Shown piece by piece: positions 4,832 through 60,895 of a stretch of DNA of 60,895 nucleotides. Each line of letters begins with the position of its first letter. Within the stretch, counting starts at the first letter, position 1. The stretch lies in IMG/VR virus record IMGVR_UViG_3300049432_000039, positions 1-60,895 of that record. One strand, written 5' to 3'. The notes below the pieces were generated by a model. It was not told the origin of the DNA. It ran no database searches and saw nothing but the letters and a program-made list of their open reading frames with translations. The DNA comes from a virus (Duplodnaviria; Caudoviricetes). A program made the translations under genes and the position numbers.

Positions 4832-5000
4832 CCGTTCTGACGATCACCGTTGACGAGATCCCGGATGTCGAGACGCGCTGCCGCCTCAAGGCTAGTCTGG
4901 CCACCGTCTACCGTGCGATTACGGGGACGGACGCAGATGTGGGAGTCGATATAGTCCCGTCACGCTGACCCCCGCGCTCCCGGCTCAGGCGGGGTGAGGG

Positions 5001-5303
5001 TTAGCGGTCCTCGTACTGGTGACACTCGATGACCCACTCCAGCACATCGGGGCGGACCGCGATCATCCGATACGGGGCAATCGAGGAAGGCATGCGCCTG
5101 GGGAAGAACCGCGTCGCCTCCTGATTCTCTCCGTGTTGTATCCAGAAGCCGTCACGTTCGATGTCATCCCAGGAGAAGACCTTGCAGCCGCACTCGATGC
5201 AGAATGACGATAGCGGCTGATGATAGAAATCCTGCGCGCCAATGGTGATCTTCACCGCGCCGGGATGCTTGTGTGGCACCCGCTCGTCGTCGTGCGTGGT
5301 CAT
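5001..5303 (-). CDS. Hypothetical protein
   Basis: GGAGG RBS, ATGA coupling. Confidence 0.55.
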   Translation of the reverse strand: MTTHDDERVPHKHPGAVKITIGAQDFYHQPLSSFCIECGCKVFSWDDIERDGFWIQHGENQEATRFFPRRMPSSIAPYRMIAVRPDVLEWVIECHQYEDR

Positions 5304-5722
5304 CCTCCTGCCCCAGGATCGACGGTCACCGCCGTCGCCGTGTGTGACTTGAAGTGCTCAGCAGCCGTTGAGTCCTCGACGCACTCTGGGCAGACCGCTG
5401 GTGCGCTAGGCGACGGTGGGGCGGCGGCACGGTCGGCGGCGGCGAGGGCGGCATCAATGGCTGCGTTGTGCTTCACGGCGACGCAATTACACTGTGCATC
5501 TGCATAGTCTTCGGGATAGTCACTGTCCTCGCGCTGAGCGATGGGGCAGTCGAAATAGGGGTCACCCAGAACTCGAAAGTGTGGAATCCGCGCTGTTTCG
5601 AGCGCTGCTATCAAGACTGGCACAGCGCTCGCCACAGTCACGACATCGTCCTCGAAGTCGAGGAGCGATCCTTCGTTGCTCAGCAAGCGCTCTGCCGATG
5701 CTCTAACATCTTCCATGCTCAC
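5300..5722 (-). CDS. Hypothetical protein
   Basis: Its GTGA start is the TCAC insertion target of the adjacent IS element. Confidence 0.6.
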   Translation of the reverse strand: MSMEDVRASAERLLSNEGSLLDFEDDVVTVASAVPVLIAALETARIPHFRVLGDPYFDCPIAQREDSDYPEDYADAQCNCVAVKHNAAIDAALAAADRAAAPPSPSAPAVCPECVEDSTAAEHFKSHTATAVTVDPGAGG

Positions 5723-6103
5723 AGAAATCGTCCCAGGAAGCTGCCTGCTTTAGCTGGCAGAGGAATGGGACAGCCGATCTTGGATCGGCCCCGGATTGAG
5801 AACCGAGAATCAACCGCCACTCGGTACAATGAAAGGGATGAGTCCAAAGGCACCCACTGGGTCAAACAGTTAGGACTCAGCACCTTGACAACCAAATCTT
5901 GACGGTTGCTGGCAGGACTCTTTGCCAGCGTAAAAGGTTTGAAGCGGGGTCGGAGCATGTCTCTGGCCTGTCCTTCGGAGTAGCCTCGGGGCTACATGCT
6001 GGGGCGTCAGTCAATGCGCCTATGGTTGGGGTCGTTGATGTTGGAGATCGAAGCCCAACGGAGATCACTGACAAGCTGCCTGCTTTAGCTGGCAGTCGTT
6101 GAC
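5723..6103 (+). mobile_element. Non-autonomous IS200/IS605-family element (381 bp, no tnpA/tnpB) retaining the TnpB-type right end
   Basis: Follows TCAC; subterminal hairpin AAGCTGCCTGCTTTAGCTGGCAG at both ends; ends TTGAC; tnpB-like C-terminal remnant ASVNAPMVG; removal restores a GTGA stop/start overlap. Confidence 0.75.
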
Positions 6104-6342
6104 TCTCTCCTCTCGCGCCTCTCCCACTCCCTCCGCGCTCGGCGGTAGGCGTCGCAGCGGATGCACATACCACCAGCGGCGCTGAGTGGACAGGGGACGC
6201 CACTCGATCTGGCGTAGCACTCGCCGTAATCAACCCGACGCGGCGGCTGATTAGGATCACGGTATATCCGTTGTTCGTTCATCGTCTCACAGACCACCCG
6301 TCCCAGGAAGCTGCCTGCTTTAGCTGGCAGTCGTTGACTCAT
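6085..6342 (-). CDS. Small Cys-containing hypothetical protein modified at both ends by IS-derived sequence
   Basis: GGGAGG RBS; without the elements it reads MSETMNEQRIY...RRE*. Confidence 0.55.
   Translation of the reverse strand: MSQRLPAKAGSFLGRVVCETMNEQRIYRDPNQPPRRVDYGECYARSSGVPCPLSAAGGMCIRCDAYRRARREWERRERRESTTAS
6291..6338 (+). mobile_element. 48-bp collapsed IS605-type mini element (left and right ends fused through one hairpin), inserted in frame
   Basis: TCAC|AGACCACCCGTCCCAGGAAGCTGCCTGCTTTAGCTGGCAGTCGTTGAC. Confidence 0.75.
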
Positions 6343-6401
6343 CGTTTCCTCCCTGCCCGCCTCGCGTCGTGCCGCTCAGGCGGCGTGGTTGGTGGTGGTG
6401 G

Positions 6402-6590
6402 TCAACCGTTCCAGTCGTCACCGTTCCGAAGGCGACGCTCAACATCGTTCAGTAGATTGACGGCGTTTTGGACTTGCTGCGCGCTCACGCGCCATCCATC
6501 CTCTCGAAGCTCGTGTGCATCGGTACTGAGGCGCGTAGCCATATCGGAGAGGCGGTTGGCGAGTCGTCGAGCGGACATGATCTCTGGCAT
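6402..6590 (-). CDS. Hypothetical protein
   Basis: Member of a leftward small-gene operon. Confidence 0.5.
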   Translation of the reverse strand: MPEIMSARRLANRLSDMATRLSTDAHELREDGWRVSAQQVQNAVNLLNDVERRLRNGDDWNG

Positions 6591-6641
6591 GCGTTCTCAT
6601 CCCCTCGTGCCCGCCGCCAGTGATGGCGGCGTGGTCAGTCG

Positions 6642-6809
6642 TCAGTCGTCGGATTCTGGCTTATACGGGTCCAGCAACGCGGCGTGCGTCGGGCAGAAGT
6701 CGTCGTTGTCGATGTTGATCCCCCAATCAGCGGGAGGACCGTCCCCCTCGTCGGTCTCGACTTTGGCATCACAGCGATGACCGTCGCAGTACCAGATCTC
6801 TTTCATGCT
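6642..6809 (-). CDS. Small Cys-rich (Zn-finger-like) protein
   Basis: CDGHRC..GW-like..DFCPTH; resembles 8909-9121. Confidence 0.55.
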   Translation of the reverse strand, partial: SMKEIWYCDGHRCDAKVETDEGDGPPADWGINIDNDDFCPTHAALLDPYKPESDD

Positions 6810-6868
6810 CATGGTGCTCTCCTCCATGCTCGCTCAGCGCCGGCCGTGCCTGCCGGACGGGTGGTGGG

Positions 6869-7072
6869 TCATTGTCCGAAAGTCTGGACTCGCTTTGCCC
6901 CACAGATGGGGAGTTCTGTAGTCGAGCCGAGAGCGATCGTCACGCCGTATTCGGCCTTGCAACCGTATTCGCAAATCAGCAGCAGTTCTCCGTCATTGCT
7001 GAGATACATCAGGCTCATCGGCTTATCGCAATGCGGGCAGACCATGCTGTTCCGTTGCTCAAGTTTCTGCAT
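6869..7072 (-). CDS. Small Cys-rich protein
   Basis: CPHC..CEYGC; GAGGA RBS. Confidence 0.5.
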   Translation of the reverse strand: MQKLEQRNSMVCPHCDKPMSLMYLSNDGELLLICEYGCKAEYGVTIALGSTTELPICGAKRVQTFGQ

Positions 7073-7686: not shown

Positions 7687-7869
7687 ATGATGGAGGGTGA
7701 ACGCATGTACACGGTGCCGGAGGTGGCCGAGCGGCTCCGTCTGCACCAGCAGACCATCCGCGAATGGCTACGGATCGGGAAGATCAAGGGCATCCGTCTG
7801 GGCGGGACGAAGGCCGGCTGGCGCATCCCGGATAACGAGATCGCGCGATTGTTACGGGGTGAAGAATGA
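7687..7869 (+). CDS. Excisionase-type HTH DNA-binding protein
   Basis: YTVPEVAERLRLHQQTIREWLRIGKIKG..WRI. Confidence 0.8.
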   Translation: MMEGERMYTVPEVAERLRLHQQTIREWLRIGKIKGIRLGGTKAGWRIPDNEIARLLRGEE

Positions 7870-8192
7870 CGGCCGGCGTCTACGCGATCAGGAACCGTGC
7901 AACCGGCAAAGTCTATGTCGGGACGTCGCTTGATATACCCACCAGGGTGCGCGGCCACCTATCAATGCTCAAGACCGGCTGGCACCACAACAGACGGCTT
8001 CAAGAGGATTGGGTCGCATTCGGGGCGTCGGCTTTCTCATTCTGCCTCTTGAATGCTACGTCTGCTGATGCAGACCTGATCGCAGCGGAGCGGCACTGGA
8101 TCGAAGTCTTACGGGCTCGCACGGGCGGGCTCTATAACATGATGTCACCCAGGGGCGGCCCGCGTGAAGCTCGACGCCGCAACTCCCGATGA
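7866..8192 (+). CDS. GIY-YIG nuclease
   Basis: GVYAIRN..KVYVG..R..H..E..LYN. Confidence 0.8.
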   Translation: MTAGVYAIRNRATGKVYVGTSLDIPTRVRGHLSMLKTGWHHNRRLQEDWVAFGASAFSFCLLNATSADADLIAAERHWIEVLRARTGGLYNMMSPRGGPREARRRNSR

Positions 8193-26344: not shown

Positions 26345-26377
26345 AGGGACGCATGAAACAGGGTTTTACGGCTCTAG

Positions 26378-26567
26378 CTTCGGACATGGCTTCGGACAAA
26401 TGGCCCCTTTACGGACAAACGCCAAAAATCTTCGGACATGGCTTCGGACATCCGAGTTTTGAGATTCCGAGTCACTTCGGACATCTTCGGACATGGCTTC
26501 GGACAAATGAGCCAGCTTCGGACACCATCCTCCCCCTAAAGGGGGAGGGAGGATGGTCTGTCCGAAG
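26378..26567. repeat. Putative replication origin: CTTCGGACA iterons and inverted repeat
   Basis: Eight exact direct copies (26378, 26390, 26430, 26442, 26475, 26485, 26497, 26516), one degenerate copy and one inverted copy (26559) around the hairpin TCCCCCTAAAGGGGGA. Confidence 0.8.
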
Positions 26568-52237: not shown

Positions 52238-55200
52238 ATGGTGGTAATTGGGAGCGCCGAGTATCAGCTCCTCGTCAACATCCCGGCCCTGAAGGCCGCC
52301 TTCCAGCAGGCCGAGAAGGAGGCTGCGGCCGGCGCGGCGAAGGTCGCCTCGGCCGTCGATGCCGGATCAGCGAAGCTCGACGCCGCCGCCAAGAAAGCAG
52401 CCGATGCGCAGGTCCGCGAGGCTGCCCGTGCCTCGGCCGCCGTCGCGAAAGAGGCCAAGAAGTCCGCCGACGCGCAGGCCCGCGAGGCAGCACGAGCAGC
52501 CTCCGCTGCCGCGAGCGAGGCGAAGAAAGCGGCCGATGCGCAGATCAGGGAGGCCAACCGCGCGGCAGCGGCCCAGGAATCGGCCGCACGGAAGGCGGCG
52601 GCGACGCGGCTCTCGGTTCAGCGCGTCGTGGGCGGTGCGGTTGGATCTGTCGCCGGTGTCGCCGGCGCCGGCACGCTGGCGGGCGCCGGCCCGGCCGGGT
52701 TCGCCGCCGCCGGCGTGCTTGCCGCGACCGCCGGCTTCAGCGAGGCCGTCAAACAGACGACGGAGTTGGAGCAGGCCCAGCGCAAGGTCAACGTCCTCTA
52801 CGCCGAGGGCGCTGCCGCCGTCACCGCGTTCGCCAAGGCGCAGGCCGCCGCCTCGCCCGGCCAGACCACCAAGGACTACCTCGAAGCCGCCGCCGTCGTC
52901 AAAACGCTGGCCGCCAACTACGGCCTGTCTGCCGACCAGCTCAAGCAGGTTATCAAGCTCGGCGCCGACTACGCGGCCGTCACCGGCACCGACGTCGCGG
53001 ACGCCACTAAGCGGGTCTCGGACGCCATCCGGGGCGAGGCCGAGTCCGCCGAGGCACTCGGGCTGACGCTGAACTCCGACGCCATCAAGGCGATGGCGCA
53101 GATGACGGACGAGCAGCGCAAGAACTGGGAGACGCTCGACCCGCTCATCAAGGCCCAGATCATCCTCCGTGAGGCGCTCAAGCAAGGCGCGGTCGTCCAG
53201 GGCGAGGCCGCCAAGGGCGCCGACGGCATGAGCGGCGCCTTCGAGAAACTGAGCAAGGCCGGGAACGAGCTCGGCACCGCCATCGGTGGGAGTGCGACCG
53301 TCGGCGTGGCCGACTTCGTCTCGGGGGTGGCCGACGGCATCACGGTCGTCGGCCGGTTCGTGAAGAGCCTCGATGAGATCCCCGGCAAGATCGCCGCGAT
53401 GAACGAGGCGGTCCGGAACGCGCCGTCCGTGCAGGGCGGCATCCCCCGCGCCGGCAGCTTCGACGACCCGGCCACGGCGCCCCGTCCCCAGTTCGGGCCG
53501 ACCGCCGAGGAGGTCTCTGCCGCGCAGGCCGCGCAGAAGGCCATCGCCGCCGCCGCCCAGGATGCGGCCAACGTCGCCAAGCGCGCCGCCGCCGAACGCA
53601 AGGCCGCCGCCATCGACGCGGCCGAGGCCGAAGTCGCCGCCGCCAAGCGGGTCGCCGATCTCGCCTCGGACGTGCATACCGGGCAGGCGTCGGCCGCTCG
53701 TGAGGCGGCGGCCACGGCGCAGGACGCCATCGAGGCGACCAGAGACAAGGACATCGCCGCCGCCCAGGACCGCAAGGAGGCCGACCTCGCCGCGTTCGAC
53801 GCGAGGGCGCAGGCGTCCAGCGACTACTTCCGGGGGCTCATCGCCGACGCCGAGGCGGCCAGGGATGCCGAGATCGCGGCCGTCAATGCCCGCAAGGAAG
53901 CGGCGCTCTCGGCCATCTCCGCCGAGCGGTCGGCCCAGTCCTCAACCCGCCGGACCGAGGATCGGGCGCTGGCCGACTCCAGGCGGGCCGAGGATCGGGC
54001 GCGCTCGTCGTCCGGTCCCGCCTTCGGCGGCAGTGGCGGCGGGGGCATCGTCCTGGACCCGAAGGCTCACGAGCACGCCGCCGCGTCGGCGTCCAAGGGG
54101 GCTGCCGAGGCCAGAGACGCCGGCCAGGTTGCCGCCGCCGACATCCTGGGCATCGCCGAGGCCACGGCCAAAGCCGCCGCCGACCGTTCGGCCGCCGTCA
54201 TCAAGGGCTTCGAGGCCGAGGCCGAGGCCGCCAGACGGGCGGCCGATGCCACCATCCGGGGGATCGAGCAGGAGGAGCAGGCCGCCCGCAAGCAGGCGGA
54301 CGCCGCCATTCGGGGGATCGCGGACCGCGAGCGCGCCGAGAACGAACGGCACGATCAGGCGACCCGCAACCTCGACGCCGAGGCGCAGCAGGCGTTGGGC
54401 GCCATCGATGACCAGCTCGAGGCGCTCGACGAGGAGCAACGCGCCCGCGACCGCGCCCGGACCGACCGCGACCTGGCCGAGAACCTCCGCTCGGCGCGGA
54501 CCCTCAGGGAGCGGCAGGCGGCGGCCAGGGCCATCGCCGATGAGAAGGCTCGCCGCGCGTTCGAGGACAAGCGCGCCGACCTCCAGGGCCAGAAGCAGGA
54601 CATCCAGGACGATGTCGCTAAGAGACGGCAGGCCGAGGACGAGCGCCACGCCGCCGAGCTCGACAACCTGGCCCAGGAGAAGCAGGCCGTCGCCGACCGT
54701 CTGGCCGCGACCCTGGAGGGGCTGGCCGCCGAGAAGCAGGCCGTCGCCGACACGCTCCAGGCGACGCTCGACGGCGTCCAGGTCCGGATCGAGGCCGAGC
54801 AGGCGCGGTCCAAGGCCGAGATCGACGGCATCGAGCGCGCCGCCGTCATCGCCGCCAGCACGGCGGAGTACGCAGCCGCGCAGCGGGCGGATATCGCCGA
54901 CGCCGAGGCCGCGCACGAGCGGATGCTGGCCGAGAAGAACGCCCAGGCCGCCCAGGGCGCCATTGACGACCGGCGGGCCCTTGAGGACCAGGCTCTCGAA
55001 GACCGGCGCCTCGCCGAGGACCGGGCGATCGAGGACCGCAGGCGGGCCGAGGACGATGCGCTGGACGCCCGCGAGAAGCAGATCGAGGACGAGGCCAAGG
55101 CCCAGATCGACGCCATCAAGGAAGTCTACGACGGCCCCGGCGGGATCATCCCGAGCCTCCGCCAGCGCGAGCAGGAGGAGGCTCGCTCGATCGCCCGCCT

Positions 55201-56065: not shown

Positions 56066-56418
56066 GCAGCAGTTTCGGCAGCCTCGCCTTCCGCCCGTCG
56101 CGCGAGGACGTGCTGGTGCCGCTGCCGGCCCAGGACTATCTCGCCCCGGAGCGCGCCGTCCCGTACGCGCCGGGCGGGGGCCTCCTGGTGGTCGACCTGG
56201 GCGGCCTGGGCGCGCGCCACTACGACGACGTCATCTACGTTCTGCCTGCCGACGCCGCCAACTGGCGGTCGGCGCTGGGGACGACCGCCGCGCTGACGGT
56301 GGCCGACGTCTCCTACGGCTCGGCCGTCCTGGTCACCCTGGCCGACGAACAGGTCACGTTCGGGCGCGATCTGTACGCCTTTTCGGCTCGCTTCGTGATC
56401 GGTGCCGTGGCGGCCTGA
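56062..56418 (+). CDS. Distal tail (Dit-like) protein
   Basis: Directly follows the tape measure gene. Confidence 0.55.
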   Translation: MSSSFGSLAFRPSREDVLVPLPAQDYLAPERAVPYAPGGGLLVVDLGGLGARHYDDVIYVLPADAANWRSALGTTAALTVADVSYGSAVLVTLADEQVTFGRDLYAFSARFVIGAVAA

Positions 56419-59952: not shown

Positions 59953-60864
59953 GTGCCGCCGACGCCGCCACCGGGCCGGGGCCTCGGGAAGAGGGGCGCA
60001 TCTCCCGAGGCCGAGCGGGTCTTAGAGCGAATGTTTATGCGCCTCCAGCGCCGCATCTTCGACGAGGTCGCCCGGATGATCGCGCGAGCGCTCGGACAGG
60101 TGACCTCGGTCCCGCAGCCGCCCCTCGGCGTGGCGGTCATCCCGCCGCTCGGTGGTGACGTCACTGGCAGCATCAGCGCCACCACGGTTGAGCATCTCCA
60201 GGGCATCCCGGTCAGCGCCACCGACCCGACCGAGGGCCAGGTGCTCAAGGCCGTCTCCGGGACGTGGATGCCGGCCGCCGATGTGGGATTCGCCAACCCG
60301 ATGACCACGGCCGAGGATCTCATCAAGGGCGGGGTGAGCGGAGCGCCCGCACGGCTCGCGGTGGGAACTACCGGCACCGTCCTGAAGGTGGTCGCCGGCG
60401 TCGTTGCCTGGGCGGCCGAGATCGTCTCGGCGCTCGCCTCGTCGGTCGTGACCGAAACCGCGTTCGGGCAGTCCTCGGCGGTCGGTGTCGCAACGACGGC
60501 AGCCCGAGGCGACCACACCCACGGCACGCCGACGAATCCGATCACGGCGCACGAGGCGGCGGCCAACCCACACCCAGATTACACGACGACGGCCGAGCTG
60601 GCGACGGCCGTGGCGCTGTTGCTCGCCAAGTCCCTGATCGACGCGAAGGGCGACCTGATCCTCGGTACGGCCAACGACGTACCGGCCCGCTTAGCTGTCG
60701 GCACGGACGGGCAGATCCTCTACGCTGACAGCACCCAGGCGGCCGGCGTCCGCTGGGACGACGCGCCGACCGGCGGGGGGTCGTCGCACTGGGAGGTCGT
60801 GCTGCTGGACGGTGAGCCCGTCACGCTCGATGGTTCATGGCTGTACATGGAAGTTTTGGACTGA
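59953..60864 (+). CDS. Tail fibre protein (start at 59953 or 60031)
   Basis: Shares DAKGDL..PARLAVG and AH.AA.NPHP.Y modules with 128-1741. Confidence 0.7.
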   Translation: MPPTPPPGRGLGKRGASPEAERVLERMFMRLQRRIFDEVARMIARALGQVTSVPQPPLGVAVIPPLGGDVTGSISATTVEHLQGIPVSATDPTEGQVLKAVSGTWMPAADVGFANPMTTAEDLIKGGVSGAPARLAVGTTGTVLKVVAGVVAWAAEIVSALASSVVTETAFGQSSAVGVATTAARGDHTHGTPTNPITAHEAAANPHPDYTTTAELATAVALLLAKSLIDAKGDLILGTANDVPARLAVGTDGQILYADSTQAAGVRWDDAPTGGGSSHWEVVLLDGEPVTLDGSWLYMEVLD

Positions 60865-60895
60865 TGAGGAGGCGTGCTCGTGGCAACCCTGGCTG
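60770..60895. repeat. Terminal direct repeat, right copy
   Basis: Identical to 18-143. Confidence 0.95.

Follow-up and report, generated by a model that had tools for sequence, protein, structure and literature searches.

A probable guide-RNA-bearing, protein-free IS200/IS605-family element at a gene junction of a phage genome

Within the IS200/IS605 family, elements that have tnpB only are of the IS1341 type and those that have both tnpA and tnpB are of the IS605 type, and in IS608 recognition of the cleavage sites depends on bases lying 5' of each hairpin. The insertion of IS608 of Helicobacter pylori 3' of a tetranucleotide, without duplication, is outlined in Meers et al. (PMC10055086), and the sections of the same paper that deal with the ISGst elements of Geobacillus stearothermophilus note palindrome-associated transposable elements (PATEs) of this family that encode omegaRNAs. 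According to a passage in Altae-Tran et al. (PNAS 2023, PMC10691335), which cites the authors' own 2021 paper, stand-alone omegaRNAs work in trans with compatible effectors. The use in trans of a stand-alone guide RNA carried on a PATE is a concept already in print and is not new; among the papers retrieved on TnpB, PATEs and phage, no title or abstract opening describes a phage element of the kind reported here.

The locus under study lies in a stretch of 60,895 nucleotides (the window; positions 1 to 60,895 of the IMG/VR virus record IMGVR_UViG_3300049432_000039, Duplodnaviria, Caudoviricetes), of which 5723-6103 is very probably a non-autonomous IS200/IS605-family transposon, that is, a PATE or stand-alone omegaRNA element (Table 1). 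Like the ISGst PATEs as described in those sections of Meers et al., it has no protein gene, it has left and right ends of the IS605 type with a guide-RNA region at the right end, and it needs both a transposase and TnpB in trans; unlike them, in so far as those sections describe them, it lies in a phage record without any tnpA or tnpB, and its predicted RNA is about twice the size of the region shared with tnpB-coding relatives and includes a 64-nt module not found in those relatives. It resembles the stand-alone omegaRNAs of OMEGA systems, as that passage of Altae-Tran et al. presents them, in being a mobilised guide-RNA locus with neither effector nor transposase, and it differs from them in that its replicon has no effector. 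It resembles IS608 of H. pylori in its apparent insertion 3' of a tetranucleotide and in hairpin-adjacent bases that match the cleavage sites, but its motifs are TCAC and TGAC and it has no transposase gene. Its 21-nt right-end hairpin is identical to that of the elements at loci L007, L010 and L052 (IS1341-type/IS605-type) and L215, and the TTGAC/TTTAC end, the loop-GTCAA hairpin, the left-end layout and the -10 box are likewise those of tnpB-coding relatives, which differ in encoding a TnpB of 375-450 residues where the window element keeps about 34 codons. The case illustrates published ideas in good detail and contributes clean comparative evidence on the DNA-guide rule of IS200/IS605 ends; what may be new is the RNA module specific to this lineage, and also a replicon wholly devoid of the nuclease.

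Table 1. Coordinates of the element, its parts and the adjoining features in the window
Feature	Position	Strand	Remarks
Whole protein-free IS200/IS605-type element (PATE)	5723-6103	+	381 bp; start and end read from the sequence
Target/transposon-adjacent motif (TAM) TCAC	5719-5722	+	Left-end flank, directly 5' of the element
Left end	5723-5774	+	DNA-guide GGAA 5736-5739, hairpin 5740-5760, then AGGAATGGGACAGC
-10 box TACAAT (GGTACAAT), putative former tnpB promoter	5825-5830	+	Same box in L010
Structured RNA gene, omegaRNA-like (predicted)	5847-6103	+	AAGGCAC to right end; ~260 nt; module-by-module match to relatives
PATE-lineage module	5880-5943	+	GCACCTTGACAAC, P2, GGTT, H2, GTAAAA; 64 nt
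Stem P2	5893-5898 with 5936-5941	+	Within lineage module
Hairpin H2	5908-5929	+	Within lineage module
Remnant of the last ~34 tnpB codons	5995-6096	+	tblastn with L010 TnpB
Hairpin with loop ..GTCAAT	6003-6020	+	Common to tnpB-coding elements
Long variable hairpin P3 before CAA	6031-6072	+	Predicted fold; paired in relatives by eye
Right end	6075-6103	+	Hairpin 6075-6095, tail TCGTTGAC 6096-6103, cleavage motif TGAC 6100-6103
Would-be guide (flank) TCTCTCCTCTCGCGCC	6104-6119	+	Placed by analogy with TnpB systems
48-nt one-hairpin mini-element	6291-6338	+	Follows TCAC 6287-6290; hairpin between left-end arm and right-end tail
Phage ORF hit by both insertions	6085-6342	-	No Pfam match
Downstream phage ORF	5300-5722	-	GTG overlapped upstream stop before insertion; no Pfam match

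An IS605-type element had been placed at 5719..6125 in a first-pass annotation of the window; an element is present there, but its right end is at 6103, 22 nt of flank having been included. The TCAC that the annotation saw before the element is at 5719-5722, and the matching end hairpins and TTGAC end that it described are the same 21-mer, GCTGCCTGCTTTAGCTGGCAG, found twice on the same strand as the subterminal hairpin of either end, an arrangement that belongs to PATEs, with TTGAC as the final bases at 6103. This 21-mer has three matches in the window (5740-5760, 6075-6095 and 6310-6330, all on the + strand), compared with none in 100 shuffles. TCAC and AGAAATCGTCCCAGGAA stand before the copy at 5740 and AGGAATGGG stands after it; the copy at 6075 lies between ...CTGACAA and TCGTTGAC, beyond which the sequence is ordinary phage DNA. 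The GC content of the element is 55.4%, compared with 64.8% for the whole window. The element and a second, 48-nt copy each lie directly 3' of CTCAC with no target duplication around either, and the site that they have in common is CTCAC followed by TC. When 5723-6103 is excised in silico, the upstream minus-strand ORF terminates in ...RRERRE, and its TGA shares bases with the GTG of ORF 5300-5722 (GTGA, with GGAGAGAG ahead of it), which is the stop/start overlap that the first-pass annotation had claimed; judged by its sequence, the restored junction looks typical of those between phage genes. The genes surrounding the element are on the minus strand, so that its + strand is antisense to all neighbouring phage genes. 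The TACAAT box (5825-5830) and the four stems named in that annotation are all present in the interior, which it had called non-coding; neither of its ORFs, 5719-5958(-) and 5899-6102(+), matches a Pfam family. An Rfam 15 scan of 5000-7000 at E<=10 gave two chance-level matches, both outside the element, and ARAGORN, run on the whole window, found nothing inside it.

The exact end hairpin occurs in 12 IMG/VR loci, 17 bacterial MAG loci and 61 metagenome loci, the MAGs including one of the Roseiflexaceae (ten loci) and two of the Rubrobacteraceae. The left end of the window element (5723-5774) is homologous to that of the tnpB element L010 and to 21 other left ends. TnpB ORFs (PF07282 and PF01385) run into the identical hairpin in L007 and L010, and, from one locus to another, the reading frame that crosses the hairpin changes or the stop codon comes before it, which argues that it is conserved as nucleic acid and not as protein. 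The first-pass annotation had staked its reading on the existence of tnpB elements that share these ends, and tnpB elements with the same right end are thus on record. A related-locus search with the TnpB of L010 matched only L010 itself and L034.

Comparison of the ends reveals a consistent relation between the hairpins and the sites next to which they lie. Among right ends (75 distinct contexts), sequence conservation ceases exactly after TTGAC or TTTAC; CAA before the hairpin goes with TGAC (53/53) and AAA with TTAC (20/20), a rule obeyed in 73 of the 75 contexts, the exceptions being L019 and the 48-nt copy in the window. All 22 distinct left ends of the family have YCAY 17-21 nt 5' of the hairpin, and the first base of YCAY covaries with the third of the four nucleotides before the hairpin (14 C/G and eight T/A combinations). 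In the window element, TCAC pairs with GGAA at the left end and TGAC with ACAA at the right, as DNA guides would. By analogy with IS608, this covariation is the pattern expected if the bases 5' of the hairpins read the cleavage sites. All three hairpin-bearing bacterial MAGs that were tested have Y1 tnpA, and no match to it was found in two phage records. In L215, from a Rubrobacteraceae MAG, a Y1 tnpA adjoins a tnpB element whose right-end hairpin is the exact 21-mer of the window; the right end of this tnpA/tnpB element terminates in TCAC, and its left-end hairpin is unlike that of the window element and identical to that of a PATE in the same genome (L221). No tnpA element with both window-type ends was present among the relatives found.

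The first-pass annotation was also correct in stating that the window has neither tnpA nor tnpB (no match to PF07282 for TnpB or PF01797 for Y1 TnpA at E<=10) and that the last ~110 nt of the element resemble the C-terminus of tnpB. A tblastn search of the record with the L010 TnpB gave a single match, 5995-6096, to residues 375-408 of 409 (62% identity, E 1.7e-7), and a DNA alignment of this region includes a compensated stem, TTGG/CCAA versus CCGG/CCGG. Beyond this C-terminal remnant the record contains no cognate TnpB; thus any use of a guide RNA must be in trans. CheckV rates the record as 63% complete, though its ends overlap by 137 nt (7-143 and 60759-60895, 97% identity), and, to judge from this repeat, the genome may be complete in spite of the estimate, with terminal redundancy or circular permutation. 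In L010, GGTACAAT is found just ahead of the tnpB ATG, and a TAnnnT hexamer occurs at the equivalent place in 10 of 12 family members. In its sequence, the window element is the shell of a tnpB element that has kept the old promoter box, now ahead of non-coding sequence. A consensus promoter and terminator scan identified no full -35/-10 (sigma-70) promoter and no terminator.

The interior of the element, which the first-pass annotation had described as structured cargo, is indeed structured, but this description understates it, as the interior belongs to a single RNA gene that is conserved and covaries. The first gene-less relatives to be found are those at L012, L038, L044 (partial), L040, L072 and L153, and the structured interior is common to gene-less relatives in at least 12 other loci, with compensatory base changes. 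L038 (377-775(-)) and L044 (partial) are two metagenome contigs that have the same gene-less element at a common site. Whole-element MAFFT aligned the interiors poorly, and the modules were compared by anchors and a covariance model instead. The shared order of parts begins with the -10-like box, AAGGCAC with a hairpin, and ..GGTT followed by GCACNTTNNNAAC; it continues with stem P2 around GGTT, hairpin H2 and GTAAAA, and with variable hairpins; and it ends with the loop-..GTCAAY hairpin, the long hairpin, CAA, the end hairpin and the tail. The stems of H2 vary in sequence, and their cognate arms pair over at least 5 bp in seven of seven members, compared with 2 of the 42 non-cognate combinations obtained by mixing arms between members; between L038 and L044 the stem is wholly rewritten, TGATCG/CGATCA versus CCGGCA/TGCCGG, with pairing kept. 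RNAalifold finds compensatory changes in 14 of 16 pairs of the 64-nt block. In ten sequences aligned without the window, 89.5% of cells pair, as against 64.8% when shuffled (0/500 shuffles as high), and pairing drops to <=57% once the partners are slid, counts that are favoured by the fitting of this alignment (A5) to the covariance model. Folding energy is modestly better than that of shuffles (z -2.0 and -2.5), and G.T pairs in several stems assign the fold to the + strand, that of tnpB and its guide RNA.

A covariance model built from the ten sequences with the window row left out (R2) has one match in the window, 5880-5943 (67.9 bits, E 1.1e-12). Among 89 other loci, which include tnpB-coding ones, R2 matches only L063 and L022, both gene-less, and did not find the 64-nt module in any tnpB-coding locus. 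Further lineage members can be found by such a model: another model of the block, R1, recovered L220 and L221 (Rubrobacteraceae MAG) as well as L222 and L224 (G224). A loose pattern scan matched at least 116 loci, and among those listed L153 passed the filter as real; a stricter scan matched L153 and L212, the latter rejected as a chance match in AT-rich coding DNA. The module is combined with six or more different end hairpins, and the ends are of the TGAC or TCAC type. The loop-GTCAA hairpin and the end hairpin are common to the window element and tnpB-coding elements, and in 25 tnpB-coding right ends RNAalifold finds compensatory changes in four of five pairs of the former. The tnpB ORFs of L039, L048, L050 and L052 contain ..ACCTTGTCGGTT and a hairpin ~110-130 nt before the right end, which may be the coding-embedded counterpart of GCACCTTGAC..GGTT and its hairpin in the module, the match being short. 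As in an omegaRNA, the structured region is positioned at the right end over the 3' end of tnpB, lies on the sense strand and has a covarying secondary structure; on this comparative evidence the interior is one conserved RNA gene and not loose cargo. Protein-free elements with the same end type and with interiors not matching R2 are present at L003 (5361-5641), L081 (353-867) and L086 (~2200-2585), indicating that several gene-less lineages have these ends in common. On the contig of L063, the gene-less element with the lineage module (1-270) lies ~1.2 kb upstream of a tnpB element (1509-2781).

Mobility of the family can be seen at L220, where a PATE of 382 nt, inserted after TCAC, sits behind ...AATCTCAC; a related genome, L233, has the precise empty site, in which ...AATCTCAC is joined directly to CCTAACATACC... 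(reading CCTAAC... after the junction), and other relatives are likewise empty at this site. The distribution of the lineage module is patchy: it is present in one of 151 sampled genomes of the phylum and in three of 101 sampled Rubrobacteraceae, one of them (G175) unpublished. For the phage itself, near and distant DNA searches of GenBank phages gave no match, nor did protein searches of them with the flanking ORF and a lysin-like ORF, and a search of IMG/VR with the flanking 140-aa ORF gave 29 pattern matches, none confirmed, and no sibling phage; an empty-site allele of the window's own copy was found neither in GenBank phages nor in IMG/VR. The Rubrobacteraceae were considered as hosts and set aside, the lysin-like ORF having weak domain-level matches only, in 10 of 101 genomes.

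The 48-nt copy, missing from the first-pass annotation, lies ~190 bp from the large element and holds the third copy of the hairpin (6310-6330) between a left-end arm, AGACCACCCGTCCCAGGAA, and the tail TCGTTGAC. Its left arm is unlike that of the large element, which indicates a separate insertion. To the minus-strand ORF that both have entered (6085-6342), the insertions add 16 residues near the N-terminus and five (STTAS) at the C-terminus; the 48-nt copy is in frame, the ORF starting MSQRLPAKAGSFLGRVVCETMNEQ with the copy and MSETMNEQ, behind GGGAGGAA, without it. We infer that this copy is what a full copy became after deletion between its two identical hairpins. Contrary to the right-end rule, it combines GAA with TGAC; because the two do not match, its right end should no longer be cuttable, and from its sequence it is probably an immobile deletion remnant.

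Such a remnant raises the question of whether the large element is itself an inert decay product, a tnpB element that has lost most of its ORF and merely occupies space. The lack of tnpA and tnpB in the record, the survival of just ~34 tnpB codons and the more reduced copy 190 bp away would all suit this explanation, but it is improbable, since random deletion products would not have a 64-nt covarying module in common; the interior architecture has been kept, with compensatory changes, in unrelated contexts and with different end hairpins, the promoter-like box is retained in 10 of 12 members, and the presence of a family member at L220 and its precise absence at L233 are recent. We give little credence, too, to the idea that the folds are only signals for single-stranded DNA transposition, or belong to an RNA that acts independently of TnpB (antisense to ORF 6085-6342(-)) or as a TnpB decoy, the last being a suggestion of the first-pass annotation that no result here favours. 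In IS608, TnpA acts on the strand of the predicted RNA, the + strand of the element is antisense to every neighbouring phage gene, and the lineage module was not seen in tnpB-coding relatives, all as this idea would have it. Known recognition by TnpA, however, needs just the subterminal hairpins and adjacent bases, whereas the conserved modules reach 220 nt from the right end, directly after the promoter-like box, and the 3' 100 nt recur at the right ends of tnpB-coding elements, the location of the guide-RNA gene.

The hairpins could also be thought a phage regulatory repeat that precedes genes as an operator, terminator or translation signal, given that, on the minus strand, the copies at 5740 and 6310 are just upstream of the start codons of two consecutive genes and have CTTCCTGGGACG...CTGTGAG in common. 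This is ruled out, as nearly as such a comparison can rule anything out, by the occurrence of the hairpin at three places only in the 60.9-kb window and by the identical 21-mer at the ends of TnpB ORFs in unrelated phages and bacteria; moreover, the U-tract of a terminator is absent and the IS200/IS605 end rules are satisfied.

The preferred explanation taken as a whole, a guide-RNA-bearing PATE inserted 3' of TCAC at a phage gene junction, is likely. The end rules and the empty site in the family argue that a Y1 TnpA supplied in trans would have moved the element as single-stranded DNA. The TACAAT box would direct transcription of the + strand through the scaffold into the flank, yielding an omegaRNA with the guide TCTCTCCTCTCGCGCC..., and a compatible TnpB, from the host or from a co-resident element, would load this RNA and cut TCAC plus flank; transcription, TnpB loading and cutting are here extrapolated from published TnpB biology. 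The only occurrence of the guide sequence in the window, with up to three mismatches allowed, is the element's own flank, which leaves an element-free allele in some other genome as the sole predicted target; cutting of that allele would favour retention or copying of the element. The odds that this RNA is produced and that a TnpB uses it are about even: the module was not found in tnpB-coding loci, and acceptance of the enlarged scaffold by TnpB is accordingly offered as a proposal only. Were the RNA to be transcribed and a host TnpB to accept it, an element of 381 bp with no protein gene could bias its own inheritance among co-infecting phages, a minimal form of RNA-guided homing, and the additional conserved RNA domain of the lineage would reveal the requirements of a guide RNA that no longer overlaps the nuclease gene. 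The cutting of element-free sibling phages by a host TnpB, as the first-pass annotation proposed, is plausible and extends the published model outlined in Meers et al. (PMC10055086); actual homing of the element between phage genomes is unlikely on present analysis.

A broader reading, which we regard as doubtful, joins these proposals into a self-standing lineage of guide-RNA-only transposons with its own RNA domain and a homing drive in phage. The domain would consist of AAGGCAC...GCACNTT..AAC, a stem, GGTT, a hairpin and GTAAAA, absent from TnpB-linked guide RNAs, and the lineage would keep this RNA core while swapping end hairpins and cleavage motifs to suit the local TnpA/TnpB pair. A phage member of the lineage would be a homing drive with no protein of its own: the host TnpB would cut element-free siblings at TCAC plus flank, and repair would copy the element in.

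Elsewhere in the window, a 23-nt repeat, ATCTTCGGACATGGCTTCGGACA, itself an internal duplication, occurs three times in 26376-26505 at a spacing of 52-55 nt. Three tandem 66-nt units (76% identity) at 52388-52573 are probably a coding repeat, and a 276-nt repeat pair at 56101 and 56457 is 73% identical. The 108-aa ORF 7866-8192(+) has an N-terminus, ..GVYAIRNRATGKVYVGTS.., that resembles what we take to be a GIY-YIG nuclease motif.
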